Shown: piece by piece, positions 5,639 to 42,311 of the stretch
Numbering within the stretch: the first letter of the stretch is position 1
Layout: each line of letters opens with the position of its first letter
From: a virus
DNA: 43,336 nt
IMG/VR virus record: IMGVR_UViG_3300042478_002332
Strand: one strand, 5' to 3'
Program-made: the position numbers and the translations under genes
The notes under the pieces: model-generated
Seen by the model: only the letters and a program-made list of their open reading frames with translations
Database searches by the model: none
Told to the model about the DNA's origin: nothing

Positions 5639-5845
5639 CTAGTTCCTTTCCTTGGTTTCTTCGAACACTCGTTCCCCGTCCTCCCGCAGCATTGCCCGCC
5701 AAACTTCGCGCCGATGAATCGACACGCTATCCGGCGCTTCAATGCCGATCCGCACCGTATCGCCGGCTATGCCGCCGACTACAATCTCAACGTCTAGCCC
5801 CGGCAATACGATTGCCTCGCCTTCCCTGCGCCTAAGCCAAAGCAT
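5639..5845 (-). CDS. csrA: CsrA-family RNA-binding translational regulator homologue
   Basis: MLWLRRREGEAIVL...VEIVVGGIAGDTVRIGIEAPDSVSIHRREVW aligns by eye with the CsrA consensus ML.LtRr.GE.i.I......v....g..VriGi.AP..v.v.ReE. Confidence 0.85.
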   Translation of the reverse strand: MLWLRRREGEAIVLPGLDVEIVVGGIAGDTVRIGIEAPDSVSIHRREVWRAMLREDGERVFEETKERN

Positions 5846-5913: not shown

Positions 5914-6306
5914 TCAGCCGCGATCCATCGCGGCGCCCCCGTCCGTTGGTTTGTCGCCGTCGATGAACAGCGCGAAGCCGCGCGAAACTCGCCGCGCCAT
6001 TACCTCAACCTTTGCCGGTGTTCCCGGCGCGGCATCCGTTGCCGGCGTGGCCTGCATGGCGCTATCGATCGAATCGTGAATCGACGTTAGTTCCCCAATG
6101 GCGACGATCAGCGCATCCGCGAGGATCGTTTGATCCCCGGCCAGCGCCCGCGCCCGCCATTCATTCGTGCCGCTCGCGCTCTTGCGTTCGCGACCATAAA
6201 GCCGAATGACGTTGCATAGGTGAGCGTGGACGCGCGACGTTCGCCGCAGCCATCCGGCAAGCCGCCGGCCGATCGTGGCCGATAGCCGCGTGCGGCGGTT
6301 CGTCAC
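5914..6306 (-). CDS. hypothetical protein (130 aa, GTG start coupled to the upstream stop)
   Basis: The C-terminal two-thirds of track ORF 5914..6576 look protein-like. GTGA overlaps the stop of 6303..6521. Confidence 0.45.
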   Translation of the reverse strand: MTNRRTRLSATIGRRLAGWLRRTSRVHAHLCNVIRLYGRERKSASGTNEWRARALAGDQTILADALIVAIGELTSIHDSIDSAMQATPATDAAPGTPAKVEVMARRVSRGFALFIDGDKPTDGGAAMDRG

Positions 6307-6521
6307 CTCCGCAACGCTGCCGCCGCTGCCCAATCCGAATCCGTCCAGCCGGCGCGGATCGCCTCGCAGCCCGCGCGTATTTCTTCGGGGCTTGGCGCCC
6401 ATGCGTTCATCTGCCGCGACAGCCCGCGCACCTCCTCGCGGCTTATCCCTAGCCGCTGCGCTATCTGCGCCGTTGTCTGCCCTGCGTCCAGCCATTCGCG
6501 CACCGTTTGCTCTATGTCCAT
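6303..6521 (-). CDS. small helix-turn-helix DNA-binding protein, first gene of the early operon
   Basis: MDIEQTVREWLDAGQTTAQIAQRLGISREEVRGLSRQM is a classic HTH pattern. Start trimmed to ATG 6521. Confidence 0.65.
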   Translation of the reverse strand: MDIEQTVREWLDAGQTTAQIAQRLGISREEVRGLSRQMNAWAPSPEEIRAGCEAIRAGWTDSDWAAAAALRR

Positions 6522-6622
6522 GCGCCCCCCAGTTGGCAACTAGGGCCGCGGCGCTGCGTCCGTGCGTAGCAATCATCCGCCAGCCCCGTCGATGGTTCCT
6601 GCCGTCGCTCCATGCGGCGGCG

Positions 6623-6719: not shown

Positions 6720-7922
6720 ATGGGGAATCCCAAATCCGGCCGCGACGATGGGCAAAACGGGCAGGATATGCAGCCGGAAACGCGGATCATTGCGGGCGAT
6801 TGCTTGCAAGGAATGGCAACGCTGCCCGATAGCAGCGTGCATTGCGCGATCACCTCGCCGCCCTACTGGGGGCTTCGTGACTACGGCAACGCTGGGCAAA
6901 TCGGGTTAGAACCCACGCCGGAAGCCTACGTCGCCCGCATGGTGGAAGTGTTCCGCGAGGTGCGTCGAGTGCTGCGGGAGGACGGTACTTGCTGGATCAA
7001 CCTTGGGGATTCGTACAGCGGGAACGCTTCCAGCGGTGGCAAAAACTCCAACGACGGCGGGCCTGCCGTTCGTGTTGTTGGGGTTCCGACAAAACGTGGC
7101 GACGGCCTTAAGCCCAAAGACCTCGTAGGCATCCCTTGGCGTGTCGCCTTCGCCCTCCAGGCGGACGGATGGTGGCTGCGGCAGGATATCATCTGGCACA
7201 AGCCCAACCCTATGCCGGAAAGCGTGCGCGATCGCTGCACTAAGGCGCACGAATACGTGTTTTTGCTTGCGAAAAGCGTTGACTATTTTTTTGATGCAAA
7301 GGCAATCGACGAACCGCTAGCGACAAAGCCCCATGCGCCTGGGAACAAGGCAGGAAAAGATGGGGGCCACCTTCGAAATGATTTTGGAACGGATGCGATG
7401 GCGCGAGTATGGGGCGCTTCTGGAAGACGCAACCGGCGTTCAGTTTGGAAGATTGCCACGCGCCCATACCGCGGCGCACATTTCGCGGTCATGCCGCCGG
7501 CATTAGTTGCTGACTGCCTTCGCGCGGGAACCAGCGCCGCGGGTTGCTGTGCGGAATGCGGCGCTCCGATTCGCCGCGTTGTCTCGCGGGAGCGCGTTGC
7601 CACGCGCCCCGGCACGGACACAAAGACAACCGGCAACGCGGCGCGCGAAGGGAACCGCGATCCGCTGCGGCACGTTACGCAAACCGAAACGGTTGGATGG
7701 GAACCGTCGTGCGCCTGCAACGCCGCGCGAATCCCGGCGACCGTCTTTGACCCGTTCGCCGGCAGCGGAACTACGCTAGCCGTTGCCGTGGCGAATGGCC
7801 GAAGCGGGATCGGCTGCGAACTGAACCCCGACTATATCGCGCTCGCGGAACAACGGATCAGCGAGGCGCGATCAGTTTCGCCACTGGAACGCCAAGCGCT
7901 TCCGCCAGCGCGGACAGCGTAG
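6720..7922 (+). CDS. DNA methyltransferase, N4/N6 beta-class (PF01555-like), with no partner endonuclease recognised
   Basis: Motif IV is ITSPPYWGLRDYG near the N-terminus. Motif I is FDPFAGSGTTLAVA near the C-terminus. The start is ATG 6720 (AGAGGAG upstream) or ATG 6768. Confidence 0.85.
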   Translation: MGNPKSGRDDGQNGQDMQPETRIIAGDCLQGMATLPDSSVHCAITSPPYWGLRDYGNAGQIGLEPTPEAYVARMVEVFREVRRVLREDGTCWINLGDSYSGNASSGGKNSNDGGPAVRVVGVPTKRGDGLKPKDLVGIPWRVAFALQADGWWLRQDIIWHKPNPMPESVRDRCTKAHEYVFLLAKSVDYFFDAKAIDEPLATKPHAPGNKAGKDGGHLRNDFGTDAMARVWGASGRRNRRSVWKIATRPYRGAHFAVMPPALVADCLRAGTSAAGCCAECGAPIRRVVSRERVATRPGTDTKTTGNAAREGNRDPLRHVTQTETVGWEPSCACNAARIPATVFDPFAGSGTTLAVAVANGRSGIGCELNPDYIALAEQRISEARSVSPLERQALPPARTA

Positions 7923-8127
7923 ACACGCGCGGATCGGTAATGCGGCCGGTTGAAATGCGGTAGATCGTTTCCAGGCTCACGCCGGACGCCTCCGCGATTT
8001 CGTCTAGGTGTTTGTGCCGCCGCGCGGCTAGCCGCTCAATGCGGCGCCCTAGTTCCGTGCGCTCCAACTGTCGCGGCCTTCCGCCCGCGCCGCGTTCCCC
8101 GGCTTTTGCGTTGTTTACTGTCGCCAT
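7858..8127 (-). CDS. XRE/Cro-CI-type HTH regulator (repressor candidate)
   Basis: LDEIAEASGVSLETIYRISTGRITDPRVSTLSALAEALGV is an XRE-type HTH. Start trimmed to ATG 8127. The gene lies next to attP and int. Confidence 0.75.
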   Translation of the reverse strand: MATVNNAKAGERGAGGRPRQLERTELGRRIERLAARRHKHLDEIAEASGVSLETIYRISTGRITDPRVSTLSALAEALGVPVAKLIAPR

Positions 8128-8197: not shown

Positions 8198-8250
8198 TAC
8201 ACCCGGCAGGGATCGAACCTGCAACCTTCGGTTCCGTAGACCGATGCGAC
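8198..8250 (-). other. attP core candidate: 3' portion of a tRNA-Arg(ACG) gene (anticodon arm to acceptor 3' strand), not a complete tRNA
   Basis: Minus strand: TCGGT-CTACGGA-ACCGA AGGTT GCAGG-TTCGATC-CCTGC CGGGTGT A. No complementary 5' acceptor strand or D-arm lies upstream. Confidence 0.75.
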
Positions 8251-8339
8251 ATATGGGGGGGAGGCCACCCGTAGGGATTGTGTTGATTTTGCTTTCCAAT
8301 TTTTTGATTGGGAGGGGAACGCACCACGCGGAAGGGCTA

Positions 8340-8378: not shown

Positions 8379-9260
8379 ATGATCCGCAGCAATTCGCCAA
8401 AGACTCTTGCCGGTTACGTTTCCGCGTATGCGCTCACGCATCCGCTAGAGCGCGAATCCATTCGGCAATACGAAATCGCCGTTCGCCTCCTCGACCGCTG
8501 GGCCGGTCATGCCGTGCGGCTTGACGAACTCGACGCGCCGCTAGTCTCGCAATGGATCGCGGACTATTCGCAGACGGTGGCGCCGCAGACCGCGCGGAGC
8601 AAGCGCCGCCAAATCGTTTCCCTATGGCGCTCCGCGGTCGATGATGGGCTATGCGATCCCGTGGCGCTCATGCGCCGCGTTCGCCCGGTGCGCTGCCCGT
8701 GGAAACCGCCCGTGGCATGGACGCGCGAGGAAGTGCAACGGCTCATCAATGCGTGCGCGGCTATCCCGCGGTGGCATCGCTGCGGGCTGCGGCGCTCTGA
8801 ATGGTGGGCGCTCGCGATCCGCGTTGCCTACGATTCGGGGCTACGGTGGGAGGATCAAATGTTCCGCCTTCGCGTGGATCAAATCACGGAGGAAGGTTTC
8901 ATAGCGTGGCCGCAGCATAAGACAGGGAGGGTTGTCGTTTGCCAGTTGTCGGAACCAACGTTGGCCGCGCTGCGGCTATCGCTGCAACGTTGCGCGCGCG
9001 AACTCGCTACCCCGTGGCTGGGCAGCCATGAAACGTTTTCCGATCAAGTGCGAACGATCGTTCGCCGCGCGGGCATTCGCAGCGGTACATGGAAATGGAT
9101 TCGCCGCACGGGGGCGACCGAATGCGAAATACAGGAACCGGGATCAGCCGGCCGGCATTTAGGACACGCCCCAGGAAGCAAACTCGCCTATTTGGCCTAT
9201 GTCGATCCTGCCCAGGTTGCCGCAGCCCGCGGGAAAACAACGCCGCGCGCCCTCGCTTGA
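8379..9260 (+). CDS. int: tyrosine recombinase / phage integrase
   Basis: AYDSGLRWED (Arg I), WIRRTGATE (box II Arg), HLGHAPGSKLAYLAYVD (His...Tyr). Adjacent to the tRNA fragment. Confidence 0.85.
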   Translation: MIRSNSPKTLAGYVSAYALTHPLERESIRQYEIAVRLLDRWAGHAVRLDELDAPLVSQWIADYSQTVAPQTARSKRRQIVSLWRSAVDDGLCDPVALMRRVRPVRCPWKPPVAWTREEVQRLINACAAIPRWHRCGLRRSEWWALAIRVAYDSGLRWEDQMFRLRVDQITEEGFIAWPQHKTGRVVVCQLSEPTLAALRLSLQRCARELATPWLGSHETFSDQVRTIVRRAGIRSGTWKWIRRTGATECEIQEPGSAGRHLGHAPGSKLAYLAYVDPAQVAAARGKTTPRALA

Positions 9261-9291
9261 CCGCTGGCAGCCGATCGGCAATACTGTAGGC
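9257..9291 (+). promoter_or_regulatory. Variant cassette promoter P7 for xis: TTGACC-N17 (contains GCCGATCGGC)-AATACT, 6 nt before the ATG
   Basis: Same palindrome and same register as P1-P6. The -35 overlaps the int stop codon. Confidence 0.5.
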
Positions 9292-9522
9292 ATGGCAAAA
9301 ATCGACCCCTCGCTATATGTGACGATCGGCAACGCCGCGAGAATCGCAGACGTTGATCGATTTTGGATGCGGCAACTCGTCAAGGCCGGCAAGATTTCCG
9401 GCGTGGAAATCGACGGGCAATGGTTTGCCCTGCGGTCTGCGGTCGAGAAATACCAGCGTTCCGACACGGGGCGCCCCCGTCTGCCGCGGGCTGCAAAATC
9501 CGCCGGCCCCAAAAAAGCCTAG
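9292..9522 (+). CDS. xis: excisionase-family HTH protein
   Basis: YVTIGNAARIADVDRFWMRQLVKAGKISGVEIDGQWFALRSAVEKY resembles the excisionase/MerR-type HTH. It sits directly after int. Start trimmed to ATG 9292. Confidence 0.65.
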   Translation: MAKIDPSLYVTIGNAARIADVDRFWMRQLVKAGKISGVEIDGQWFALRSAVEKYQRSDTGRPRLPRAAKSAGPKKA

Positions 9523-9567
9523 GTTTCGCGGGGTTTTTCCAGGGGAAAGATTTTTTGGGTTAAGGGC

Positions 9568-9625
9568 TGGACAGGGTATTGCCGATCGGATATAGTGTTG
9601 GCATGACGCGGACGATTGAGCCGCG
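9568..9625 (+). promoter_or_regulatory. Cassette promoter P1: TGGACA-N17-TATAGT plus a 5' hairpin
   Basis: TGGACAgggtATTGCCGATCGGaTATAGTgttggcATGACGCGGacgattgagCCGCG. Confidence 0.65.
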
Positions 9626-9650
9626 GCAAACTTCAAAAGGAACCCAAGCC

Positions 9651-9890
9651 ATGACGAACTCCCAGTTTTCCGCTGCCGTCGAAATCGCCAAGGGCAACGC
9701 CGATCTTTCCCGCGTTGATACCGAAATCCTTTTCGGCTACGGGCTGCGGAACTTCGCCCCCGTCGCTGCCACCGTGGAAACCGTCGCCGCCGTGATTCGC
9801 TGGGATTGCTTGATGCTGAACGGCGAGTTTGACTCCGTGGCCCTCGACAACCTCCACAGCATCTTCCGCCGCAAAGTGACGGTTGTTTGA
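9651..9890 (+). CDS. hypothetical protein (79 aa)
   Basis: ATG preceded by the conserved AAAGGAACCCAAGCC. Confidence 0.6.
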   Translation: MTNSQFSAAVEIAKGNADLSRVDTEILFGYGLRNFAPVAATVETVAAVIRWDCLMLNGEFDSVALDNLHSIFRRKVTVV

Positions 9891-9904
9891 CCGCAAACCC
9901 ACCG

Positions 9905-9929
9905 CCCCCGCGGCACTTCGCCGCGGGGG
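9905..9929 (+). terminator. GC hairpin CCCCCGCGG-cacttcg-CCGCGGGGG (no U-tract)
   Basis: Direct reading. The same stem recurs at 10555..10579. Confidence 0.45.
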
Positions 9930-9960
9930 CCGCAACCCCCAGCCACTAGGAACCCCAGCC

Positions 9961-10146
9961 ATGACCACCGCCGAAAAAAACCTCGCAATCTCAACCGCCA
10001 TCGTCGCTCACCGGCTCGCCGGGAAAACCATCCGCGAAGCCGTGGACGCGGTTTTCGGCCCCGGCGGATACCAGCAAATCGCCGGCATCATTTGGGAAAT
10101 GCTGCGGGAAGCGGAAGGAATCGCCCCCGTGGAAAAATCCGCTTGA
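9961..10146 (+). CDS. hypothetical protein (61 aa)
   Basis: ATG preceded by TAGGAACCCCAGCC. Confidence 0.55.
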   Translation: MTTAEKNLAISTAIVAHRLAGKTIREAVDAVFGPGGYQQIAGIIWEMLREAEGIAPVEKSA

Positions 10147-10197
10147 CGGGCTATTGCCGTCCGGCTATACTTCCACCATGACGCGGCAACGAGCCGC
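10143..10197 (+). promoter_or_regulatory. Cassette promoter P2: TTGACG-N17-TATACT plus a 5' hairpin
   Basis: TTGACGggctATTGCCGTCCGGcTATACTtccaccATGACGCGGcaacgagCCGCG. The -35 overlaps the upstream stop codon. Confidence 0.65.
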
Positions 10198-10229
10198 GAG
10201 GAACCCACGAAAGAAAAGGAACCCAAGCC

Positions 10230-10544
10230 ATGACCGCGACCGAATCCAACGCGATTGCAACCGAAATCCTCAACCAGTTGGGCGGGGGGCGATTCGTCGC
10301 CATGACAGGCGCAAAGAATATTGCCCATGATGCGGGCGCCCTCCGCTTCCGCCTCCCCTCGCGGTTCGCCCGCGGCGGCATCAACGCGGTTCGCGTGACG
10401 CTGACCGCGGCCGACGATTATACGATCGAATACGGCAAGGTCTGGGGGCTGAACTATCGCGTTATCAAAACGCAAGCCGGCGTTTATGCGGACACGCTGC
10501 GGGCTTCGTTCAAGGCTGCGACGGGGCTGGATTGCACGCTCTAG
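10230..10544 (+). CDS. hypothetical protein (104 aa)
   Basis: ATG preceded by AAAGGAACCCAAGCC. Confidence 0.65.
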   Translation: MTATESNAIATEILNQLGGGRFVAMTGAKNIAHDAGALRFRLPSRFARGGINAVRVTLTAADDYTIEYGKVWGLNYRVIKTQAGVYADTLRASFKAATGLDCTL

Positions 10545-10554
10545 GAATCACAAG

Positions 10555-10579
10555 CCCCCGCGGCATTGGGCCGCGGGGG
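10555..10579 (+). terminator. GC hairpin CCCCCGCGG-cattggg-CCGCGGGGG
   Basis: Direct reading. Confidence 0.45.
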
Positions 10580-10610
10580 CAATCGACCACAAGCAAAAAG
10601 GAAAATCACA

Positions 10611-10835
10611 ATGGCGAAGGCAACGAAGATTGACGCGAATAGTTGGATTTATTGCGGCGTTCGAATTGAGCGAGGCGAGCATAGCCGAACGTATGTTCCT
10701 GCAATCAATGACGGGCAATGCCGCTCCTGCCGGCGCTTGAGCGATGCGGTTTTGGAAATCGACCTAGCCCGCTACCGCGCATGGGAAGCCGCCCAGCGCA
10801 ATGCCAAAGCCGCAGCCCCCACCCCCAGCCCGTGA
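10611..10835 (+). CDS. hypothetical protein (74 aa)
   Basis: ATG preceded by AAAAAGGAAAATCACA. Start trimmed from track ORF 10566. Confidence 0.55.
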   Translation: MAKATKIDANSWIYCGVRIERGEHSRTYVPAINDGQCRSCRRLSDAVLEIDLARYRAWEAAQRNAKAAAPTPSP

Positions 10836-10920
10836 CGGGCCGGGGGTGGCCGGGGGCCGCGGGGGCAAACCCCCGGTTTCCCGGCCGAAAACCCCACGAA
10901 AGATTTTTCCGCTCAAGGGC

Positions 10921-10978
10921 TTGTATCGATATTGCCGAATGGCTATACTAGAACCAACGCGAGCAAATGAGACTCGCG
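10921..10978 (+). promoter_or_regulatory. Cassette promoter P3: TTGTAT-N17-TATACT plus a 5' hairpin
   Basis: TTGTATcgatATTGCCGAATGGcTATACTagaaccAACGCGAGcaaatgagaCTCGCG. Confidence 0.6.
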
Positions 10979-11004
10979 GGAATGAAACGAAAGGAACCCC
11001 AGCC

Positions 11005-11184
11005 ATGTATCGGATCACCTTCGCAAACGGAACGGTTGAAAGCGGAATCAACTTCATCGTTGCGTGCCAGCAAATCCAGAATCGGCCTAGCGTCAACTGG
11101 CGTGCCGACATTGGCGAGTGGATCGGCGGGGTTTGCAAGGTGCGGCTGGATGGCCGAATCATCGCGACGATCACCGCAGCCTAA
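11005..11184 (+). CDS. hypothetical protein (59 aa)
   Basis: ATG preceded by AAAGGAACCCCAGCC. In frame with track ORF 10801..11184. Confidence 0.55.
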   Translation: MYRITFANGTVESGINFIVACQQIQNRPSVNWRADIGEWIGGVCKVRLDGRIIATITAA

Positions 11185-11193
11185 CCAAACCAA

Positions 11194-11222
11194 CCCCCAG
11201 CCGGCACGTTGCCGGCTGGGGG
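11194..11222 (+). terminator. GC hairpin CCCCCAGCCGGC-acgtt-GCCGGCTGGGGG
   Basis: Direct reading. Confidence 0.45.
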
Positions 11223-11257
11223 CAGCCCAACCCCAGGAAAGAACAGGAACCCCAGCA

Positions 11258-11551
11258 ATGACCACCGAAACCGCAACCGCCCCCGCCGTCGTTAAGTTCG
11301 CCGTTGGCACAACCTACTACACGCGAAGCGCTGGCGACCACAATTGCATATGGCGTTTCACGATCGTGCGCCGCAGCGCGTCTAGCGTTTGGATTGCCCA
11401 CGAAGGCGACCGCGGCCCCACGGTTGAACGCCGCAAGATCAGCGAATACAACGGGCGCGAAACGTTCGCCCCGTTTGGCCGATACTCCATGTCGCCTACG
11501 GTCTGGGCGGATCGCGTGGCCGATGGCGTGGCCGATCGCCGGGATTGGTAG
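11258..11551 (+). CDS. hypothetical protein (97 aa)
   Basis: ATG preceded by ACAGGAACCCCAGCA. In frame with track ORF 10967..11551. Confidence 0.55.
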   Translation: MTTETATAPAVVKFAVGTTYYTRSAGDHNCIWRFTIVRRSASSVWIAHEGDRGPTVERRKISEYNGRETFAPFGRYSMSPTVWADRVADGVADRRDW

Positions 11552-11562
11552 TCGAGAGGATA

Positions 11563-11587
11563 GCCCGCCGGCACGGGGCCGGCGGGC
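11563..11587 (+). terminator. GC hairpin GCCCGCCGGC-acggg-GCCGGCGGGC
   Basis: Direct reading. Confidence 0.45.
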
Positions 11588-11627
11588 GGTGGTCGCTTAT
11601 CAACGCTCAACGAGTAGGAAAACAACA

Positions 11628-11912
11628 ATGGGACGCGCCGCAAGCAAAAACGAAATCGCCGCCGCAGCCGAACGGAAAACTTTTGAGGTTTTCCACGATG
11701 CTTTTCGTGGCCGTTACTATGTGATCGATAGCCAGCAAGACGCAAACGGCAAGCGCATTTTTGAACACGATTCGCAAGCCTGCGAAAAGGCGATCGAACT
11801 TAACCTATCAACGATTTCCGAACTGCTCGCGCTCAATGCCAAACTACAGGCGCGGCTAGTCCATGCCACCGCGCAGGAAACGGCGCGGATTTGTTCCGGC
11901 AACGATAAGTAG
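11628..11912 (+). CDS. hypothetical protein (94 aa)
   Basis: ATG preceded by GTAGGAAAACAACA. In frame with track ORF 11304..11912. Confidence 0.55.
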   Translation: MGRAASKNEIAAAAERKTFEVFHDAFRGRYYVIDSQQDANGKRIFEHDSQACEKAIELNLSTISELLALNAKLQARLVHATAQETARICSGNDK

Positions 11913-11997
11913 CCGCCCCGGCCGGGGGGCTGCCGCAATCCGGCAGCCACCGTTTTCCCCGCGGAAAACAGCCCAAAAAATAATTCGGCTCAAGGGC

Positions 11998-12051
11998 TTG
12001 TCCTGATATTGCCGATCGGCTATAGTGTATCCAACGCGGTGAGGAACCGCG
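11998..12051 (+). promoter_or_regulatory. Cassette promoter P4: TTGTCC-N17-TATAGT plus a 5' hairpin
   Basis: TTGTCCtgatATTGCCGATCGGcTATAGTgtatccAACGCGGTgaggaACCGCG. Confidence 0.65.
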
Positions 12052-12078
12052 GAACCCAAAAGAAAAGGAAACCTAGCA

Positions 12079-12465
12079 ATGGCAACGAATTATGTGGTTC
12101 GCGGGATGGCTGAAGAAGGCAAGTGCGAGCATTGCGGCGCGAACTGCCCGAAGCGCCGCGTCTACGTTCAGCCGGTCTACGCGGACGGCGACCGCGGCGA
12201 GGTCGAAGCCTGGGGCGTGATTTGCGCCAGCAAGGCACGCGGCGAGCGTGGCACCGTGACCGATGGAAAGTATCTGACCCAGTTTGCGAAGCATTGCGAT
12301 CGCGTCCGGGCGATCGTCGCGGCCGGCGGCGGCTACAACGAAATCAACCGCGGCACGGTCTACAACTACCCGTTTGATATTCTCCGCGGGGTGGTGCGGG
12401 TTTTCACCTACGGCAACCGCACGAACTTTGCAGACGTTGAAATCCCCATGCCGGTGATCGGCTGA
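12079..12465 (+). CDS. hypothetical protein (128 aa) with an N-terminal CxxC...C cluster
   Basis: ATG preceded by AAAGGAAACCTAGCA. Contains CEHCGANCP. Confidence 0.65.
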   Translation: MATNYVVRGMAEEGKCEHCGANCPKRRVYVQPVYADGDRGEVEAWGVICASKARGERGTVTDGKYLTQFAKHCDRVRAIVAAGGGYNEINRGTVYNYPFDILRGVVRVFTYGNRTNFADVEIPMPVIG

Positions 12466-12588
12466 CGGCAGCCGCCCCCGCCGGCCGCGGTGGCCGGCGG
12501 GGGGTTCCCGGCCCCCGGCCGGCTGCCGGCCGAAACCCCCGGTTTCGCCCGCGAAAATCACGGTTCCAAAAAAAATCTGGATTGCCGC

Positions 12589-12647
12589 TTGACCTATTGC
12601 CGATCGGCTATATACTGGGAACATGACGCGAGCAAATGAGACTCGCG
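12589..12647 (+). promoter_or_regulatory. Cassette promoter P5: TTGACC-N16-TATACT plus a 5' hairpin identical to that of P3
   Basis: TTGACCtATTGCCGATCGGctaTATACTgggaacATGACGCGAGcaaatgagaCTCGCG. Confidence 0.6.
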
Positions 12648-12673
12648 GCAGGATTTCCGAAGGAACCAAAGCC

Positions 12674-13018
12674 ATGAAGACCGCCACCAAGACCAAGACC
12701 AGCCCGAAGGTTGCCGCCCTGGAGTTTCTGAACGCTTGCCAGCGTCAAGGCTGGACGGTTCGCGCCGATGAGGAAACCCGCGTCGTGACCATCACCAAGC
12801 ATTTCGCCCCCGGCGATAACGCCGCGTTCGTCGCCCTCGACGGCGAATATTACGATCTTCTCTCGCGGCTGCCGGCCCGCGGCGGTTCCATGTGGGGAAC
12901 GGACGGCAGCGGCGTGGGCGGCTACTCCGCGATCCTGCACGGTTGTTTCACGATGAACCTTTCCGGCGTGAGCGCGGCCGCCGTTCGCACCATCTACGGA
13001 ATCCTTTCCCGCGACTAA
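12674..13018 (+). CDS. hypothetical protein (114 aa)
   Basis: ATG preceded by GAAGGAACCAAAGCC. Start trimmed from track ORF 12623. Confidence 0.6.
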   Translation: MKTATKTKTSPKVAALEFLNACQRQGWTVRADEETRVVTITKHFAPGDNAAFVALDGEYYDLLSRLPARGGSMWGTDGSGVGGYSAILHGCFTMNLSGVSAAAVRTIYGILSRD

Positions 13019-13029
13019 CCGACAACCGC

Positions 13030-13053
13030 CCCCGGCGGCATCCGCCGCCGGGG
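13030..13053 (+). terminator. GC hairpin CCCCGGCGGC-atcc-GCCGCCGGGG
   Basis: Direct reading. Confidence 0.45.
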
Positions 13054-13068
13054 AAGGGGGGGCTACCA

Positions 13069-13284
13069 ATGCCGCAACTGCTGGCCGATCTAATGACGAA
13101 TCCCAACCTAGCCCGCGCGGATGCCGCGTGGCTTGCGTCCGCAATCGCTAGCGATTGCCTTCGGCGCTGCAACGTGGACGAACTGCCGCGATTGCTCGCG
13201 ACGATCGGCGCATGGCGTGCCGATGTGCTGGCCGCGATCCGCGCGAACTTTCCGCAGCATTGCGAGGGGGCCGGCAATGGCTAA
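13069..13284 (+). CDS. hypothetical protein (71 aa)
   Basis: In frame with track ORF 12892..13284. The first ATG after the hairpin. Confidence 0.5.
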   Translation: MPQLLADLMTNPNLARADAAWLASAIASDCLRRCNVDELPRLLATIGAWRADVLAAIRANFPQHCEGAGNG

Positions 13285-13486
13285 CCGAAAGCCGCAACTA
13301 TTCGACCGCTGGGAATCGCCGGCATTTGCCGCCATGCTGCTAGCGTGGGCCGACAACCTCGACCGTTGCTATGCAGACGCGGCGGCTTTTGATGCCGCCC
13401 GCGCGGAAGCCTGCGAGGATAGCGAGGAAGCCGAAACCGCCGATCCCGTGCGCGATGGCTGGATCGGAAAGGACGGGCAGCCATGA
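13277..13486 (+). CDS. hypothetical acidic protein (69 aa)
   Basis: In frame with track ORF 13121..13486. The ATG overlaps the upstream gene end. Confidence 0.5.
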   Translation: MANRKPQLFDRWESPAFAAMLLAWADNLDRCYADAAAFDAARAEACEDSEEAETADPVRDGWIGKDGQP

Positions 13487-13614
13487 AAAGCCACGTTGAC
13501 GCGGCATTGCGGGCGCTGCTGCTGGTCAAGATCGGGCAGGAACTAGGCGCCGATTCGCCGCTCGCGCGGGCGGTTCACGATGCGATTTCCGCAATCATCG
13601 CGATGGCGCTCTAA
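13483..13614 (+). CDS. hypothetical micro-ORF (43 aa), below the track cut-off
   Basis: ATGA overlap with the upstream stop. Hand translation: MKSHVDAALRALLLVKIGQELGADSPLARAVHDAISAIIAMAL. Confidence 0.35.
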   Translation: MKSHVDAALRALLLVKIGQELGADSPLARAVHDAISAIIAMAL

Positions 13615-34461: not shown

Positions 34462-36297
34462 TCAAGCGGTCGCCATGCGGTAGGCCGCGAGCGATTCGCC
34501 CTTGGCGCAACCGAAGTCCATGTAGCCGCGGAGCGTCACGCCCAGCACGGAAGCATCGGCCTCGACCTGTTCGATCGTCGGCGCCTGCTGCCCGTTCAAG
34601 AAAACAACGTCCATCGCGGGCAGATCGGCCGCATCCGCACACAGCCACCAAGTAGAGGCGCTGGAGAGATACGCGGACGAAACCACGCGATAGCGACCGG
34701 CGAGAACGTTGGCGTTCCCCTGGGCCGTCGTGTTGCCGCTGATGAGGAGCGAACTCGACATCATTTCCGCGGCAGTCAACTCCAGTTCCGGCGGAACCAG
34801 AAGCACGCGCGGCGCGATGCCGAGCGGGTTCCCATCGGGATCGGTCAACTTCCGATAGGCAGTAGCGGCAGCCTTCAGCGAGGTGAGCGACAGCGCGTTA
34901 CCGCTGCCAGCCGTGGCCTTGCTGTAATAGGTGCTATTGCTGCTCTGGAACTCACCCCAGATCACATCGTTCATCGCGAGGGCCGCACCGCGACCAATGC
35001 GCGAAGTGACCGCGCTAAGCGCGTTCATATCGTCATTGATCAGATCGGTGCGCGTGATGCTAGAAGTGACACCGTAGGTTTCCGCCGAAACGGAACGCTT
35101 GCTATCGCTCGCGTCAGCCGATTTCAGTTCGCCACCGTTGCCAACCTTCGAAAACTTGAACGAACCGTTCAAGCGGAAAAGGTTAATCGCCTTCAGATCG
35201 GAAACGCTACGGGTCTGCGAAACCGAATCCCAAGTCCGCTCCACGGCATTGAAACCGGAAAGGAGGAACTTGTTCGCGACGGCCGACAGAATGTCGGAAA
35301 TCGCGTGCGTGGCGAAGGCCGCGCGGATCACCTGGGGGAGATTCGTCGCGCTGATCCGGTGCGAACCGTTGTAGCCGTTCGCGCGGGCAGCCTCGACAAA
35401 CACATCACCAAGCGAAACCGTGCGCTTAATCTTCTCCGCGGCTTCGATCGTCCGCTCGTCGAAAGCCTTATCAGCATTCGGCAGACCGGCCTGGAGACAC
35501 AGCGCGGCCTCGACCACGCGACCCTGATCGACCGTATCGGCCACAACATGAACGGCCGGGGCGCGACTCTCGCGCGTGGCCTGCAACTTCTGCATGGTTT
35601 CGACTTTCTCCGTAAGGGCAGCGACCGCAGCCTTAAGGCCGGCGGAATCGTCGGCGGTAGCGGTGATGGCGGGGGCTTCCACGGCGACGGTCGCCGGGGC
35701 TTCCGTTGCGGCCGAAATCGGCTCAACGGGCGTATCGTTGGCGTCGTGCGCCATAGGTGTTTCCTCCGCGTCTGCGGCGATTTGCACGGCGGTTGCGTCA
35801 TCCGCGCCAAGGGTGACAAAAGAAACCTCCCGCAACGTGGAGGCTTTTACGATTCGGATCGGGCCGTGGAACGATTGCCCGTTCACGCTTACGGTTTGAT
35901 CGGCCGGGATGCGCTCATGGCGCGAAACGTCGGCGCCGATGGAGGCTTGCCAGCGGAAGCCCTTATCGGCCAACTCCAGCACGCGCGAGGCGCTATCGGT
36001 GGAAGCCAGCATTTCGGCTTCTACGATCAACTGCCCGCCTTCGATGCCGTTTGCGGTGGTCTGCCCCAGGATGGAACCGAGCGCGTAATCGTGGCCCAGC
36101 ACGATCGGGATTTGCTGCCGCAGTTTCATTCCGGCAAGGTCAATCACGATCGGCTCGCGCGACCATCCCTGCCGGATGGCGCCGCCCGTGTAGGCGACGA
36201 TGCGAACCTTGCGCGGGCCAACGCTTTCGCCTTCGGCCGCAGCGGCAGCCGCGACGAACTCCACCGGCATTTCCGAAAAACAGACTTTGGTTTTCAT
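34462..36297 (-). CDS. fusion of an HK97-type prohead protease (S78-like), an Ala-rich linker/scaffold and a major capsid protein
   Basis: The N-terminus QIPIVLGHDYALGSILGQT...REVSFVTLGAD is the protease pattern. The C-terminal 350 aa or so look like an HK97-fold/Mu gpT-like capsid. ATGA overlap with the portal stop. Confidence 0.65.
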   Translation of the reverse strand: MKTKVCFSEMPVEFVAAAAAAEGESVGPRKVRIVAYTGGAIRQGWSREPIVIDLAGMKLRQQIPIVLGHDYALGSILGQTTANGIEGGQLIVEAEMLASTDSASRVLELADKGFRWQASIGADVSRHERIPADQTVSVNGQSFHGPIRIVKASTLREVSFVTLGADDATAVQIAADAEETPMAHDANDTPVEPISAATEAPATVAVEAPAITATADDSAGLKAAVAALTEKVETMQKLQATRESRAPAVHVVADTVDQGRVVEAALCLQAGLPNADKAFDERTIEAAEKIKRTVSLGDVFVEAARANGYNGSHRISATNLPQVIRAAFATHAISDILSAVANKFLLSGFNAVERTWDSVSQTRSVSDLKAINLFRLNGSFKFSKVGNGGELKSADASDSKRSVSAETYGVTSSITRTDLINDDMNALSAVTSRIGRGAALAMNDVIWGEFQSSNSTYYSKATAGSGNALSLTSLKAAATAYRKLTDPDGNPLGIAPRVLLVPPELELTAAEMMSSSLLISGNTTAQGNANVLAGRYRVVSSAYLSSASTWWLCADAADLPAMDVVFLNGQQAPTIEQVEADASVLGVTLRGYMDFGCAKGESLAAYRMATA

Positions 36298-37724
36298 GCG
36301 TCCTGCGGCTCCGCTTCGGGTTGCATCGCGGGCGAAGCCGGCGCGATATCCGGCAGCCCTAGTTCGCGCTGGAGCGCGATTTCCGCGGCACGCTGCCGCA
36401 ATTCGGTTTCCCAGTTTTTCCCGGCCTTCGCGTATTCGGCGGCAAGCGTTGTCGTGTTCGTGCGCAGCCGCGTTTCGGTCGCGGTGGCTTCCTTCGCCGG
36501 GTCAACGTGCTCGCGACCGTCCCAAACCCAAGCCCAATTCCATTCCGCGATCGGCGGCAAGCCGGCGGGGATCATGCCTTCGATTAGCGCGGCTTCGTCA
36601 AGCCACGCGAGGAACACGCGATCAAGGCAGATGCGTTCCAACTCGTCGCGCATAACGCGCGTGTTCGCCTGATGGATGGTCGAATCCATCCGGCCGGAAG
36701 CGTAGTTGTATGAGGACGAATCGAGCGCTGAAATGTTGAAGGGCAGACCTACCGAGCGCCCGATTTCTCCTACGATTTCGCGCTTGAACGCGGCATAGGT
36801 GCTAGTCGGTTGCTCCGCTTTCAACTGCGAAACGCTCCAGCCTTCCGGCAGCGTCACCAGCGAACGCTTCTCAATGTCCATCGATTCGAACGGGGTAACC
36901 TCGTCCACTTCCGCGGCGGGGCTGTTCGAATGGATGAACGCGGCAAGATCGGCCGCGGTTTCCGCGGCGGCAATCGTGGCTTCCGTGTAGCGGCGCAGAT
37001 TCGCGAACAGCCGCAGCGATGGCGCGATTTCCGAAACGCCGCGGTTTTGCTGCGGGCGAATGCGGTTGAACCAATGCACCATATTCCGCGCGTCCACGCG
37101 CGTGAAATCCGTGGCTGCCGTGTACCAGTTGCTACCGGGGTGGTAGCGCAGCACGCGGTAGGCAATCACGTTGCCCGCGGCGTCAAACTCCAGCCCATCG
37201 ACCGCGGAGCCTTCGGGCGTGATGCCTTCGTCCATGCCGAGCGGCGTGGCAACCATTTCGGCTTCGATAAGCCGAATGTCGAGTTGCACGCCATCCAACG
37301 CCGGATTGCTGAACAGTTGCGCGAATGCCTCGCCATCGATAAGCCTCGCCTGCCGCATCGTGCGGAGTTTCGCCGGCAAATCGATGCGCCACATATCATC
37401 GAAAAAGCGCTTTTCGACTTCGCGATCGGCTTCCGGCGCGCCGGTGGTGAGTTGCAGCCGCGGCCCCGTTCCCACCAAATCCACCGCGAGCGTTTCCGCG
37501 ATGCCGGCGAGATAGGAATTGTTAATGCGTTCGTATCGGGCGCGATTGCGCATCCGCGCCCGCTTCAGCGGCGTAAGCGCCCCGTCCATCGACAGATAAT
37601 CGGCATTGGCCCAATGCCGGTGATCGTCGGTTGATTCTGCCGCATCGAAGCCCGCGCGCACGCGAGCGGGCGGCGCCGCAACCCGCGCCCGCTTCTGCCC
37701 GAACATACGCGACAGCATTCCCAC
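36294..37724 (-). CDS. portal protein (lambda-family-like)
   Basis: 476 aa. RARYERINNSYLAGIAETLAVDLVGTGPRLQ resembles the lambda-type portal N-region. Lies after the gpW-like gene. Confidence 0.75.
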   Translation of the reverse strand: MGMLSRMFGQKRARVAAPPARVRAGFDAAESTDDHRHWANADYLSMDGALTPLKRARMRNRARYERINNSYLAGIAETLAVDLVGTGPRLQLTTGAPEADREVEKRFFDDMWRIDLPAKLRTMRQARLIDGEAFAQLFSNPALDGVQLDIRLIEAEMVATPLGMDEGITPEGSAVDGLEFDAAGNVIAYRVLRYHPGSNWYTAATDFTRVDARNMVHWFNRIRPQQNRGVSEIAPSLRLFANLRRYTEATIAAAETAADLAAFIHSNSPAAEVDEVTPFESMDIEKRSLVTLPEGWSVSQLKAEQPTSTYAAFKREIVGEIGRSVGLPFNISALDSSSYNYASGRMDSTIHQANTRVMRDELERICLDRVFLAWLDEAALIEGMIPAGLPPIAEWNWAWVWDGREHVDPAKEATATETRLRTNTTTLAAEYAKAGKNWETELRQRAAEIALQRELGLPDIAPASPAMQPEAEPQDA

Positions 37725-39482: not shown

Positions 39483-41627
39483 CTAGCCAGTTCGCCGGCG
39501 CACCGTGATTTTCCCGCCGTTGCCCTTCGGCAGTTCCACGCGGCGGCGCGTCCGCGTGCCGGTTTCGGTGGCGGCTGGGGATAGCCCCGCGATCGATGCC
39601 GCCACCGCGCTACCCACTAGGCAGTCTAGCCAATGGTTATCCCGGCCTAGGGTCTTCCATTCATCGACCACGCGCCCGCGAGCCTCGACGCGCACCGGGT
39701 ATTCAGCGGTGAGGTGTTCCGCGAGTAGTTCATGCTGCCCAGCGCACAGCGCGAGCGCTTCGGGATCACCCAGCGGCAGCCGCAGCCGCGCGGCTACGAA
39801 TGATTTCCACCAGTTCGTATCGTATAGCGCGGATCGCTGGCCCGCGCTGACTTGACCTACGCGCCAATTCAGCCCCATGCGATCGCCGCGCGCCTTGCCC
39901 TTGTCGGTGAGCGGTTGCCCCGATGCGCCGATGCCGCGCCCGTGGCTAGGGAGAATGTTCGCCGCGAACGCGGAGCGCCGCGCGAACGTTCGCACGGTGG
40001 TAGTCGATTGCCCCCAGTTGGCATCGATCATCATTTGCCGCACGCGCATTGCCGTTCCATCCTCGCGCATCCACTCGCGGCCCATGAGCGCGACCGTAGC
40101 CGCTTCCAGGCCAGCCGATAGCGAGGCTTCGAAGCCGGCGCCGTTGCTCGCGAGCGAAAGCGTCCGCTTCGCGTGCGAGGCTTCGAAGAATGAAACCGAC
40201 TGATCGGGGTATGTGCCGTAGGCGACAACGTGACCCCCGAACGATTGCGACCAAGAAGCCACAAGCCAAAACAACAACTTTTCTTGAACGTCGATAAACG
40301 CGGTCAGCGTGTCATGCCCCAGCGGCACAACGCCGCGCGGTACGTTGGTCGCGCGGGCGGCAACGTCGCGCTTTTGCAGCCGGCCGGCTTCGTTCTGCTC
40401 GACTACGGGATCGTTTTGATATTCGGCCGCGAACGCGGATTCGCCGCGGTCAATGCGGAGGTTGTAAGCGTGCTGGAGCGCGGATAGTTCGTCATCATTT
40501 TTCCGCGCCTCCCAGCCCACGCGGGCGCCCGCGTCCATTTCCGCGCGGCGCTGCCGATAAAACTCCGTGGCCTCCGCGGTTCCCCGGCCCGTCCGCTGCC
40601 CGTCGCGGCGAAGTTCCGCATACTGCGCCCAAAGGTCTTCCGCCTGCGGCCAATCGTAGACCAGCCGCATCCGCTCGCCTTGCCACGCGGGGTGGCGTGA
40701 GCGGTCTAGTAGCCGATCGGCTAGATCGTCCGGTTTCACTACCGTGACCGTGCATAGGCCGGAAATCTTTTTGCCTGGGCCGGCAAGCCCCAGGATAGCG
40801 CCTTTTAAGACGCTTTCGCGCGTGGCTACTTGCGATGGGCTAGCCGCGCTTTCGTCGGTCTGCGGATCATCGATTAGCACAAGCGAAGGCCGCGCCTTCC
40901 TGCCGTCGCAAGCGCGCTTCGCGCTCATCCCGCGGATGCGTCCGGTGATGCCGGCCACGCGGATGATGGCGCCGCTCGTCTTCGATCCTTCGATCGTGGG
41001 GAACTGCACTTCGTTTGCCGTCCAAACGATGTTGGTGTTTTTGCCTTTGTAGAGTTGGCCCGCGGCGCGCTGGTGGATGTTTTCCAATGCCGCAATCGGG
41101 AAGATGGCTTCGGGGAAATCGTCCAAAAGCCTTTCGTTGGTTTCGCATTCCACCTTGATCGATTCCAGCATCGTCCGCGCGTGTTCCTCATCCGCGCCGA
41201 TGATTGCGACGAAATCGCGATAGCCGTAGAGCGCGCCCCACAACGCGGCGACTTCGGCAAGCGAGGTCTTGCCGCTGCCGCGCGGCATCGCATACGCGAA
41301 CAGATCACCCAGCCGCACGGATGATTCGATCGCCTGCATTACGCGAAGGTGATCGGGCGACCACTCAAGCGCGAAGGTCGCCGGGAAATACGATTCGCAA
41401 AACGCGCGGAACGATTCGCCCGCGGCAGCCTTTCGCGCGGGATCGACCACCGCGGGAAGCGGCCCAATGTCCCTACCGCTTTCGGATAGTTCCGCCTGCC
41501 GCCGCGCCATCCGCTCGCGGTGGGCTTCGTATTGCTGCCGGTTGACGGCGGCATCCGGCGCGGCTGCGGCCGGCTTCGCCGGCTGGCGCTTGGGCTTGCT
41601 CGCTTTGGCCGCGCCACGTTTCGCCAT
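39483..41627 (-). CDS. terL: terminase large subunit
   Basis: Walker A AMPRGSGKTS and Walker B SLVLIDDPQTDE. Nuclease Asp motifs FIDVQEK, MIDANWG and DNHWLDC. 714 aa. Confidence 0.85.
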   Translation of the reverse strand: MAKRGAAKASKPKRQPAKPAAAAPDAAVNRQQYEAHRERMARRQAELSESGRDIGPLPAVVDPARKAAAGESFRAFCESYFPATFALEWSPDHLRVMQAIESSVRLGDLFAYAMPRGSGKTSLAEVAALWGALYGYRDFVAIIGADEEHARTMLESIKVECETNERLLDDFPEAIFPIAALENIHQRAAGQLYKGKNTNIVWTANEVQFPTIEGSKTSGAIIRVAGITGRIRGMSAKRACDGRKARPSLVLIDDPQTDESAASPSQVATRESVLKGAILGLAGPGKKISGLCTVTVVKPDDLADRLLDRSRHPAWQGERMRLVYDWPQAEDLWAQYAELRRDGQRTGRGTAEATEFYRQRRAEMDAGARVGWEARKNDDELSALQHAYNLRIDRGESAFAAEYQNDPVVEQNEAGRLQKRDVAARATNVPRGVVPLGHDTLTAFIDVQEKLLFWLVASWSQSFGGHVVAYGTYPDQSVSFFEASHAKRTLSLASNGAGFEASLSAGLEAATVALMGREWMREDGTAMRVRQMMIDANWGQSTTTVRTFARRSAFAANILPSHGRGIGASGQPLTDKGKARGDRMGLNWRVGQVSAGQRSALYDTNWWKSFVAARLRLPLGDPEALALCAGQHELLAEHLTAEYPVRVEARGRVVDEWKTLGRDNHWLDCLVGSAVAASIAGLSPAATETGTRTRRRVELPKGNGGKITVRRRTG

Positions 41628-41998: not shown

Positions 41999-42311
41999 AA
42001 GGGGTTTTCGCTTCATGCCGTTTCGGCACGCTCCGAGCAAGCCGAAATGACATGATGCGTTTATACCTTGTTTTCTAGTGTTTTATGCACATCGCGTGCG
42101 AATGTGCCGTATTTCCTAGTGGCAATATCAGTGGATGCAGGAATATAGGGCTTCCAGCACTTGATATGCGTTTCGTGCTGGAATTATGGGGTTTTTCGCT
42201 CTATGCCTATTCGGCACGCCATGAGCAAGCCGAAATGACATATCCATAAAATGCCCTTTTTTATGATGCGAAACGTACATCGCGTGCGAAAACCCCTTAT
42301 TTCCTAGTGGC
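41999..42311. repeat. AT-richer non-coding repeat region: a partial tandem duplication of about 187 bp, bounded by a 13-bp inverted repeat
   Basis: 41999-42011 AAGGGGTTTTCGC versus 42286-42298 GCGAAAACCCCTT. 42001-42053 is nearly the same as 42188-42241. 42087-42123 is nearly the same as 42275-42311. Confidence 0.8.

Follow-up and report, generated by a model that had tools for sequence, protein, structure and literature searches.

Repeated, predicted promoter-operator-hairpin cassettes ahead of small orphan genes in two hyperplastic regions of a putatively temperate, lambda-like phage genome

The viral DNA analysed here (IMG/VR record IMGVR_UViG_3300042478_002332; 43,336 nucleotides, referred to as the window) carries seven promoter-like sites, P1 to P7. 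Six of them share a composite intergenic motif, which consists of a sigma-70-like promoter, an 18-bp dyad between its -35 and -10 hexamers, a short hairpin close to the predicted 5' end of the transcript, and a translation start region. With a probability of roughly 0.68, P1-P6 are copies of one portable, co-regulated expression cassette that populates two hyperplastic regions of orphan open reading frames (ORFans), and P7, in front of an xis-like gene, is a simpler form of it. The cassette would be a temperate, high-GC analogue, equipped with a sequence-specific operator, of the nearest known system, the promoter-early stem-loop (PeSL) cassettes found in phages of the T4 type (Arbiol et al. 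2010, PMC2839356; Comeau et al. 2014, PMC4122927). Motif enrichment, placement, conservation in relatives, covariation of the hairpin arms, coincidence of breakpoints and coding constraint on the cargo genes were observed directly; from these we infer that the promoters are active and are repressed at the dyad, what the hairpin does, and how recombination proceeds.

All seven sites had been listed in an initial annotation of the window, and each was found again at the position given for it. With up to one mismatch allowed and 100 dinucleotide shuffles as the control, TATTGCCGNNNGGNTATA gave six exact matches in the window, at P1-P6, against 0.00 expected. A 73-nt nhmmer profile built from the cassette family and run over the 43-kb window returned P1-P6 only (E-values 5e-9 to 1e-15), together with a weak match at P7. 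A scan for the sigma-70 consensus detected eight promoter-like sites in 9 kb, compared with 2.4 +/- 1.7 expected, and five of the eight were P1, P2, P4, P5 and P7. Each of the P sites is intergenic and has the orientation of the next gene. No matches were obtained when the cassettes were searched against Rfam.

Five cassettes lie on the plus strand. P1 (9522-9653) comprises an inverted repeat (9522-9540), an A/T tract (9545-9559), the -35 hexamer TGGACA (9568-9573), the dyad (9577-9594), the -10 hexamer TATAGT (9591-9596), the hairpin (9607-9625), a GGA (9639-9641) and the start codon ATG at 9651. P2 (10143-10232) is made up of the -35 TTGACG (10143-10148), dyad (10152-10169), -10 TATACT (10166-10171), hairpin (10182-10198) and ATG (10230). 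P3 (10850-11007) begins with a GC hairpin (10850-10876), followed by the inverted repeat (10875-10893), A/T tract (10898-10910), -35 TTGTAT (10921-10926), dyad (10930-10947), -10 TATACT (10944-10949), hairpin (10958-10978) and ATG (11005). The same order is seen in P4 (11928-12081; GC hairpin 11928-11948, inverted repeat 11952-11969, A/T tract 11972-11985, -35 TTGTCC 11998-12003, dyad 12007-12024, -10 TATAGT 12021-12026, hairpin 12035-12051 with the loop GAGGA, ATG 12079) and in P5 (12475-12676; GC hairpin 12475-12504, inverted repeat 12541-12559, A/T tract 12566-12578, -35 TTGACC 12589-12594, dyad 12595-12612, -10 TATACT 12611-12616, hairpin 12627-12647, ATG 12674). P6 (39332-39490) lies on the minus strand between the gene for the terminase large subunit and the gpW-like and portal genes; a terminator-like hairpin and an A/T tract precede its -35 TGGACA (39412-39407), dyad (39403-39386), -10 TATAGT (39389-39384), hairpin (39377-39355) and ATG (39334). 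P7 (9257-9294, plus strand) is the promoter of the xis-like gene and has a -35 TTGACC (9257-9262), a dyad (9266-9283), a -10 AATACT (9280-9285) and an ATG at 9292. It had been described as a variant, which was borne out: its dyad is mirrored, and hairpin and leader are absent. Two of the -35 hexamers contain the stop codon of the preceding gene, i.e. that of the integrase gene int (9258-9260) in TTGACC of P7 and that of gene 9961-10146 (10144-10146) in TTGACG of P2.

About 30 related viral contigs were gathered from IMG/VR and other sources by pattern scans and by a protein-anchored scan with the xis-like protein, and 39 non-identical cassettes were drawn from the first set of these. The four-part architecture of promoter, dyad, transcript-proximal hairpin and shared start, as proposed initially, is kept in these 39 copies. 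Throughout the family the parts follow one order. A GC hairpin comes first, then GGTTTCCC..GGGAAAAC as an imperfect repeat that may be inverted or direct, and an A6-T6-like tract, followed by (a)agGGCTTGAC, the dyad, TATAMT, a gap of about 6-10 nt, the short hairpin, and AAAGGAACCCAAGCC-ATG. One type of hairpin occurs ahead of different genes, and one gene occurs behind different types of cassette. Uniformity in the window applies to P1-P6 with some qualifications: the -35 hexamer of P3 is poor (TTGTAT, 3 of 6 positions match), the start region of P6 deviates (AAAGGGCTAGCAATG), and two genes have the shared start region with no promoter.

The dyad, TATTGCC-N4-GGNWATA, fills the spacer and overlaps the -10 hexamer. 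It had been read as a near-perfect palindrome and likely operator; conservation is limited to the outer half-sites, TATTGCC and GGNWATA, and the central 4 bp vary freely. Positions 1-8 (TATTGCCG; left half TATTGCC) are invariant at 2.0 bits per position, compared with 0.4-1.1 bits in the -35 region. The right half occurs as GGCTATA, GGATATA, GGTAATA and TGCAATA with no compensating change on the left, and the dyad thus appears to be selected on sequence and not on pairing. The xis promoters of many relatives carry the 9-mer TATTGCCGA inverted (TCGGCAATA), overlapping the -10 at the mirror position around the same centre, and the dyad of P7 likewise contains TCGGCAATA, a perfect half-site in inverted orientation that overlaps the -10. 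Copies of the P5 type have their dyad 2 nt further upstream of the -10 than other cassettes. Taken together, the invariant left half, the uncompensated right half, the mirrored copies at xis and the shift in P5-type copies point to a symmetric site at which a dimeric protein would bind and block RNA polymerase, and not to a hairpin.

The opposite reading, i.e. that the palindrome is a stem-loop which attenuates or terminates transcription arriving from upstream, as in T4-type phages, is suggested by the PeSL stem-loops, most of which lie in the -35/-10 spacer or over the -10 and one of which was shown to terminate transcription (PMC2839356). We regard it as very unlikely for the dyad of this phage, in which the stem would have at most 7 bp including a T.T mismatch, the left arm is sequence-invariant and does not covary with the changing right arm, no U tract follows, and much stronger GC hairpins are already present upstream. 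A methylation-sensitive promoter (GATC/CGATCG within the dyad in combination with the phage methyltransferase) was considered as well and was rejected as a general mechanism, given that the central 4 bp are free to vary among copies.

Sequences resembling the dyad were also met elsewhere. A 188-bp tandem duplication (42001-42316) in an AT-richer stretch upstream of the terminase large subunit gene (terL) contains one minus-strand dyad-like site in each copy (TATTGCC-ACTA-GGAAATA, 42110-42127; TATAGCC-ACTA-GGAAATA, 42298-42315), the second of which overlaps the 3' end of a 115-amino-acid open reading frame; these could be extra binding sites or one duplicated chance match. Contigs L053 and L056, from Solirubrobacterales metagenome-assembled genomes (MAGs), carry the dyad 18-mer plus the -10 (TATTGCCGARAGGCTATACT) ahead of a leaderless gene for a ribbon-helix-helix protein; they have no proteins in common with the phage and were set aside as a probable coincidence.

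Candidates for the protein that binds the dyad were compared among the putative regulators of the phage. The initial annotation had suggested the XRE-family (Cro/CI-type) helix-turn-helix (HTH) protein (7858-8127, minus strand) and a sigma-r4/LuxR-like HTH protein of 78 amino acids (6303-6539, minus strand), and neither suggestion was supported. The 78-amino-acid protein is a poor candidate, being only 35% identical between the window and the relative L022 while the dyad is unchanged. Several points would fit a lysogenic scheme for the XRE protein, in which the dyad (TATTGCCGATCGGCTATA) would be the operator of a CI/Cro-type repressor, with the cassettes and xis silent in the lysogen and firing together upon induction: dyads of about 18 bp are the usual targets of XRE proteins, which bind them as dimers, the gene adjoins attP and int as genes for lysogeny repressors often do, L022 has an XRE gene in the corresponding place and homologues occur in many relatives, and xis carries the site and must stay off in a lysogen. 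The protein, however, is only 27% identical between the window and L022 while the dyad is constant, and its recognition helix varies (SLETIYRI, ANATLYRI, TPPSMWAL, STSGLHGI, NGSTLWRW) among phages that all have the same dyad. Since immunity repressors co-evolve with their sites in well-studied systems such as the cluster A mycobacteriophages (PMC6550527), a diverging helix facing a constant operator speaks against the XRE protein as the binder. Neither the promoter of the XRE gene itself nor the promoter-like site belonging to the divergent early operon was found to carry the dyad, and we consider this scheme improbable.

The second candidate is the xis-like protein itself (76 amino acids, HTH_17; gene 9292-9522, plus strand), which is predicted to adopt a winged-helix fold of the Xis/BldC/MerR type. 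Similar to Cox and Apl, it might be both excisionase and transcription factor, autoregulating P7 and shutting off the cassettes after an early burst. It is the best conserved of the three HTH proteins compared (50-96% identity), with R23, W25, M26 and R27 invariant in the closest relatives, and it heads the array, behind a dyad-bearing leaderless promoter, in all of the 31 related loci, which were recovered by searching with this same protein. Its modelled fold and its position beside int fit an excisionase, although no arm-type sites were identified in attP, and its conservation does not follow the integrase (61% identity for xis where int has 26%), a point in favour of this candidate. The modelled structure resembles the Xis of phage Pukovnik, BldC, MerR-family proteins and a DNA-binding protein of phage P2, and Apl and Cox are known to be excisionase and repressor at once (PMC7498355, PMC3936717). 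Against this stand the preference of this protein class for direct repeats one helical turn apart, rather than dyads (PMC7498355), the lack of an evident dimerisation element in the 76 amino acids, Foldseek E-values that are not significant (>=0.08) with a model of predicted local distance difference test score (pLDDT) 75, and an inconsistent outcome when helix variants (WMR/WML) were compared with site variants for co-variation; moreover, P7 would have to be held off in the lysogen by something other than Xis. We retain this candidate as tentative and rather unlikely. Several of the more distant relatives (L144, L149, L154, L156, L158, L162, L163, L165, L166, L168) have a second xis-like paralogue (motif DVTEQWLRQLV), and the relatives with a paralogue also hold other repeats (GGACAACCCGGG or GGACAACCCATAGCC, 2-3 copies) upstream of their xis promoters.

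A regulator of the host, e.g. LexA, could also be the binder and would place xis and the cassette genes under host control, for example as SOS-inducible genes. An invariant site across phages with divergent regulators is what would be expected of a shared host factor, and the silence of xis in lysogens would be explained. No host could be identified, however, the sole genome match being a 4.7-kb contig binned with a Beijerinckiaceae MAG, and to our knowledge the dyad fits no published consensus of LexA or of a global regulator, which counts against the proposal; we think of it as doubtful, though worth weighing.

The hairpin of the leader is present in 34 of the 39 cassettes and starts 6-11 nt past the -10, at a distance of 0-4 nt from where the mRNA is predicted to begin. 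As had been claimed, it is a feature of P1-P6: a covariance model gave exactly six matches in the window, all at these cassettes, and within 371 kb it matched cassettes only. The hairpins of P3 and P5 are identical (ACGCGAGCAAATGAGACTCGCGG). In an arm-swap permutation test with 19 distinct stems, arms with their native partners formed 6.05 bp on average and chimeric combinations 5.00 bp, and none of 2000 permutations reached the native value. Among the compensated changes are CGCGAG:CTCGCG to CGCAAG:CTTGCG and also CGCGAC:GTCGCG, CGCGGT:ACCGCG, CGGGC:GCCCG and GTGATGC:GCATCGC, and five G.U pairs fit the sense strand only. The arms thus covary, and the hairpin is under selection. Terminal stem-loops at the 5' end protect mRNAs such as that of ompA, and by analogy the hairpin is most likely a stabiliser of the mRNA 5' end; its conserved loop may bind a factor in addition.

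Rather than stabilising the end, the hairpin might act as a nut- or put-like site that loads a factor for antitermination or processivity and thereby lets transcription continue through the GC hairpins between the genes of a unit. The loops (CAAATGAGA, ACGATTGAG, CGAGTGA) are conserved beyond what stability needs, and units of 2-3 genes are split by very stable hairpins through which distal genes need to be transcribed. Yet neither an N-like nor a Q-like protein was identified, U tracts are missing from the GC hairpins, which may not terminate, 5 of 39 cassettes do without the hairpin, and in 16 of 39 the hairpin region would be covered by a possible leaderless, in-frame reading frame; we judge such a site to be quite unlikely. 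A lambda-type nut site in particular was rejected, for the loops have 5-11 nt and are unlike boxB, the Rfam search of the cassettes was negative, and no N-like gene was recognised in the window.

Upstream of the promoters, strong GC hairpins precede five of the six cassettes, and a GC-only hairpin, its stem 10-13 bp long, is found in each gap that separates genes of the cluster; none has a U tract. Apart from those listed with the cassettes, they comprise a hairpin with an 11-bp stem (9904-9930), its near-identical second copy (10554-10580), and further ones at 11194-11222, 11563-11587 and 13030-13053. The A/T tract covers roughly -58 to -48, where an UP element would be located. The A/T tract and the GTTTCC..GGAAAC-type palindrome, said initially to lie upstream of most copies, were confirmed and are both absent from P2, which also has no upstream terminator. 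The short upstream motif SGRAAAMC was rejected as a specific site; it is too degenerate, with 44 matches against 19 expected, spread genome-wide.

The start region AGGAAMC..AGCMATG is found at exactly seven genes of the plus-strand cluster, as first annotated. None of the other real gene starts in the window has it, and most other phage genes have no obvious Shine-Dalgarno sequence. Two of the seven genes (9961 and 11258) have this start region behind a GC hairpin only. At P7, the ATG lies 6 nt past the -10, which is the expected start of transcription, and the mRNA of the xis-like gene would thus be leaderless; a spacing of 6-7 nt is seen in the window and in most of those relatives (loci L142-L172) whose xis promoter has kept the GGCAATA half-site. 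An ATG at the predicted transcription start (ggcATGACGCGG) was also found in 16 of the 39 cassettes (in the window at 9603, 10178 and 12623), and in 12 of the 16 it is in frame with, and open to, the main ATG, at five different spacings (36, 45, 48, 51 and 54 nt). The pattern would fit an additional, leaderless start, or else selection against upstream open reading frames that are out of frame.

The phage also encodes a homologue of CsrA (68 amino acids; 5639-5845, minus strand; Pfam E-value 7.7e-18), which is kept at 40-92% identity in at least 10 related contigs. GGA occupies -12 in 33 of the 37 leaders, and half of them or more have a further GGA (26 of the 37 contain at least two); the enrichment of GGA in leaders is modest (2.00 against 1.55 +/- 0.13), and the hairpin loops mostly carry GAG, not GGA. 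It is possible that this CsrA is a translational regulator of the GGA-containing leaders. Genes for CsrA are reported for about 1.2% of phage genomes, and a role has not been assigned to any of them (PMC7366521). In the most far-reaching scheme, the cassettes would form a phage-borne regulon of two layers over a self-expanding store of ORFans, with a dyad binder (a Cox/Apl-like protein of the Xis type or a host factor) combined with CsrA and dual starts. CsrA may bind the invariant GGA at -12 and the second GGA beside the 5' hairpin, for a shut-off of early mRNAs similar to that by RegA in T4, and the in-frame 5'-terminal AUG of some copies may provide a leaderless start besides the one led by the Shine-Dalgarno sequence. 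We rate this combined scheme as speculative and improbable; if true, the leaders would be the first defined target set of a phage-encoded CsrA.

The genes served by the cassettes are located in two regions. The first (9651-13614, plus strand) extends between xis and an anchor gene of 43 amino acids and contains 12 genes for proteins of 43-128 amino acids (9651-9890, 9961-10146, 10230-10544, 10611-10835, 11005-11184, 11258-11551, 11628-11912, 12079-12465, 12674-13018, 13069-13284, 13277-13486 and 13483-13614); the last of these, the 43-amino-acid gene, is kept in nearly all relatives and is the right-hand anchor. The second region, from terL to gpW, lies behind P6 (37962-39334, minus strand) and contains genes for proteins of 86 (39334-39074), 48 (39024-38878), 103 (38861-38550) and 140 amino acids (38384-37962), the last with a weak GNAT-like match. 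Differences between homologues are mostly at codon position 3 (e.g. 32/7/68 and 97/66/266 at positions 1/2/3), which confirms the small open reading frames as real genes. No recognisable function had been seen in the twelve genes of the first region, and this remained so: among 27 distinct cargo families there was no significant Pfam match and one PHROG match, of no known function, and the small proteins of the window gave no matches with PADLOC or in a PDB sequence search. The cargo proteins are ORFans under purifying selection; the anti-defence or host-takeover role put forward in the initial annotation is a conjecture for them.

The initial annotation did not cover the evolutionary side, in which cassettes and GC hairpins coincide with the breakpoints of gene shuffling in both regions. 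Breaks in homology between relatives fall at cassettes, start codons or intergenic hairpins. Compared with the closest relative (L081/L142), the P3 and P5 cassettes are 86% identical and homology ends 7 nt into unrelated downstream genes; over the closest relatives as a whole, cassettes are 86-88% identical and the break lies 7-14 nt into the genes after P3 and P5, and in L008 homology at P5 likewise breaks soon inside the downstream gene. A module of gene 9961, P2 and gene 10230 is flanked by the near-identical hairpins 9904-9930 and 10554-10580 and is absent from L081, which has a single hairpin. Directly behind P6, contigs with an identical terminase protein have genes for 86, 135 or 89 amino acids or none, and in L073 a deletion reaches into the hairpin loop. 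Measured in 31 loci, the interval between xis and the 43-amino-acid gene amounts to 236 bp with no cassette, 0.7-2.1 kb with 1-2 cassettes, or 3.5-4.2 kb with 3-5 cassettes. An integron-like reading, with an integrase and an array of cassettes separated by palindromes, was rejected; the palindromes have no attC core sites, and the integrase is of the phage type with a tRNA-derived attP.

In the mechanism that we propose for the portable cassette, the GC-only hairpin at the end of the preceding unit would provide insulation or stabilise the 3' end, the A/T tract would act from an UP element-like position, and the near-consensus promoter (-35, 17-bp spacer, -10) would be read by host RNA polymerase with its primary sigma factor. 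A putative dimeric DNA-binding protein would occlude the promoter at the dyad, which would tie xis and all cassette genes into one regulon. The short hairpin near the 5' end would protect the mRNA, and the fixed start region with GGA at -12 would allow strong and possibly regulated translation. Cassettes and repeated GC hairpins would be shared sequence between otherwise unrelated ORFan genes, at which recombination could insert, delete and swap genes, and the two hyperplastic regions would have arisen from it.

Several points weigh against this interpretation. Promoter use, start sites and repression are all predictions. The patterns and profiles used to gather cassette copies themselves include the dyad, so the invariance of the dyad is partly a matter of ascertainment. 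The dyad has no assignable phage protein, and the main early promoter region, where a prophage repressor would be expected to act as well, has no copy of it. Terminator function of the GC hairpins is uncertain, as they have no U tracts. The covariation of the hairpin arms is supported by the arm-swap test, which was designed for this analysis in place of a single-register pair count. Such counts on the covariance-model alignment were weak (16-18 of 500 shuffles reached the observed value, and an alternative register was equal), and RNAalifold on a MAFFT alignment of the leaders gave no consensus structure; we attribute both outcomes to the mixture of two hairpin registers. The proposed role of recombination, finally, derives from the coincidence of breakpoints in a handful of contigs.

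The window has a GC content of 62% and reads as the genome of a temperate, lambda-like siphophage. On the minus strand it encodes a gpA-type large terminase (39483-41627), a lambda-family portal (36294-37724), a protease-capsid fusion (34462-36297) and an AAA_24 ATPase; a gene for an N6/N4 methyltransferase and that for the tyrosine integrase (int, 8379-9260) are on the plus strand. The methyltransferase gene on the plus strand and the XRE gene on the minus strand converge, and their 3' ends share about 65 nt (7858-7922). No tRNA genes were found in the window; a 3' fragment of tRNA-Arg(ACG) between the XRE gene and int (8198-8256, minus strand; Rfam tRNA 28.1 bits, slightly below threshold) is likely to be the attP core. 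A search of GenBank phage DNA gave no matches to the window, and the best match of the terminase protein among isolated phages had only 26% identity and offered no clue to the host. A genome-wide DNA pattern scan returned 47 loci with one true relative, the above-mentioned contig binned with a Beijerinckiaceae MAG, which is too weak for naming a host, and a scan of metagenomes returned mostly chance matches and three true relatives.

If the portable-cassette interpretation is correct, the shuffling of ORFans at regulatory cassettes, as described for lytic T4-type phages, would extend to a temperate, high-GC, lambda-like lineage known only from metagenomes, with the new layer of a sequence-specific operator common to the cassettes and the excision gene. 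The cassette would also represent a list of parts, from the UP-like tract through promoter, operator and leader hairpin to the start region, for a host system that is uncultivated, its leaders would be a candidate target set for the phage CsrA, and the signature of dyad plus hairpin could be used as a marker for hot spots of accessory genes in related viral contigs.

Among known systems, several share single features with the cassettes. The stoperators of cluster A mycobacteriophages (PMC9283540, PMC6550527) are likewise short sites repeated at many promoters or gaps of a temperate phage for one DNA-binding protein. They differ in being asymmetric, 13-14 bp long and present in at least 24 copies per genome, in also blocking elongation and in co-evolving with the immunity repressor, whereas the site described here is a dyad in 7-9 copies, always inside a promoter, that does not co-vary with the XRE repressor candidate. 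The early promoters of phiC31 carry conserved inverted repeats and show the same likeness of a multi-copy repressor site. P2 Cox and 186 Apl (PMC3936717, PMC7498355) resemble the xis-like protein, likewise a small winged-helix protein beside int that perhaps regulates both early promoters and excision; Cox and Apl bind arrays of direct repeats, and the candidate site here is a dyad. With respect to the start region, the xis-headed cluster is comparable to cluster K mycobacteriophages, in which start-associated sequences of about 13 nt, nearly invariant, are located directly upstream of a subset of start codons; in the window, however, the start region goes together with a promoter cassette or a GC hairpin, occurs at seven accessory genes only and has GGA fixed at -12. 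The P6 unit, with a promoter, cargo genes and hairpins between the conserved late genes terL and gpW/portal, and with its presence varying among close relatives, resembles the morons of lambdoid phages. Morons are individually unrelated insertions between conserved genes, with promoters of their own, whereas every unit here has the same cassette including the operator.

The closest likeness is to the PeSL cassettes, of which T4-type phages contain about 50 each, mostly ahead of ORFans (PMC2839356); one promoter for every one to three genes, called unusual for a phage in the initial annotation, is therefore not unusual. Both systems have a repeated composite intergenic motif in hyperplastic regions ahead of ORFans, an AT-rich tract upstream of a strong sigma-70-like promoter (predicted here in silico from hexamers, spacing and tracts), a dyad or stem-loop element mostly between the -35 and -10, and a Shine-Dalgarno sequence with start codon at the 3' edge, and in both, insertions, deletions and replacements between relatives map to the cassettes (here by coincidence of breakpoints). 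The PeSL hosts are lytic T4-type myoviruses with about 50 copies, and mini-circle formation goes with the T4-like myovirus lineage for which PeSLs were defined; the phage described here, of another lineage and known from its sequence alone, appears to be a temperate, lambda-like siphovirus (gpA terminase, lambda-family portal, integrase) of 62% GC with 6-7 copies. What lies between -35 and -10 in T4 PeSLs is taken to be a terminator stem-loop, and the corresponding element here is sequence-invariant and uncompensated and thus similar to a protein site; the cassettes of the window have in addition a separate leader hairpin with covarying arms and a nearly invariant start region, and their dyad is predicted to control an xis-like gene as well.

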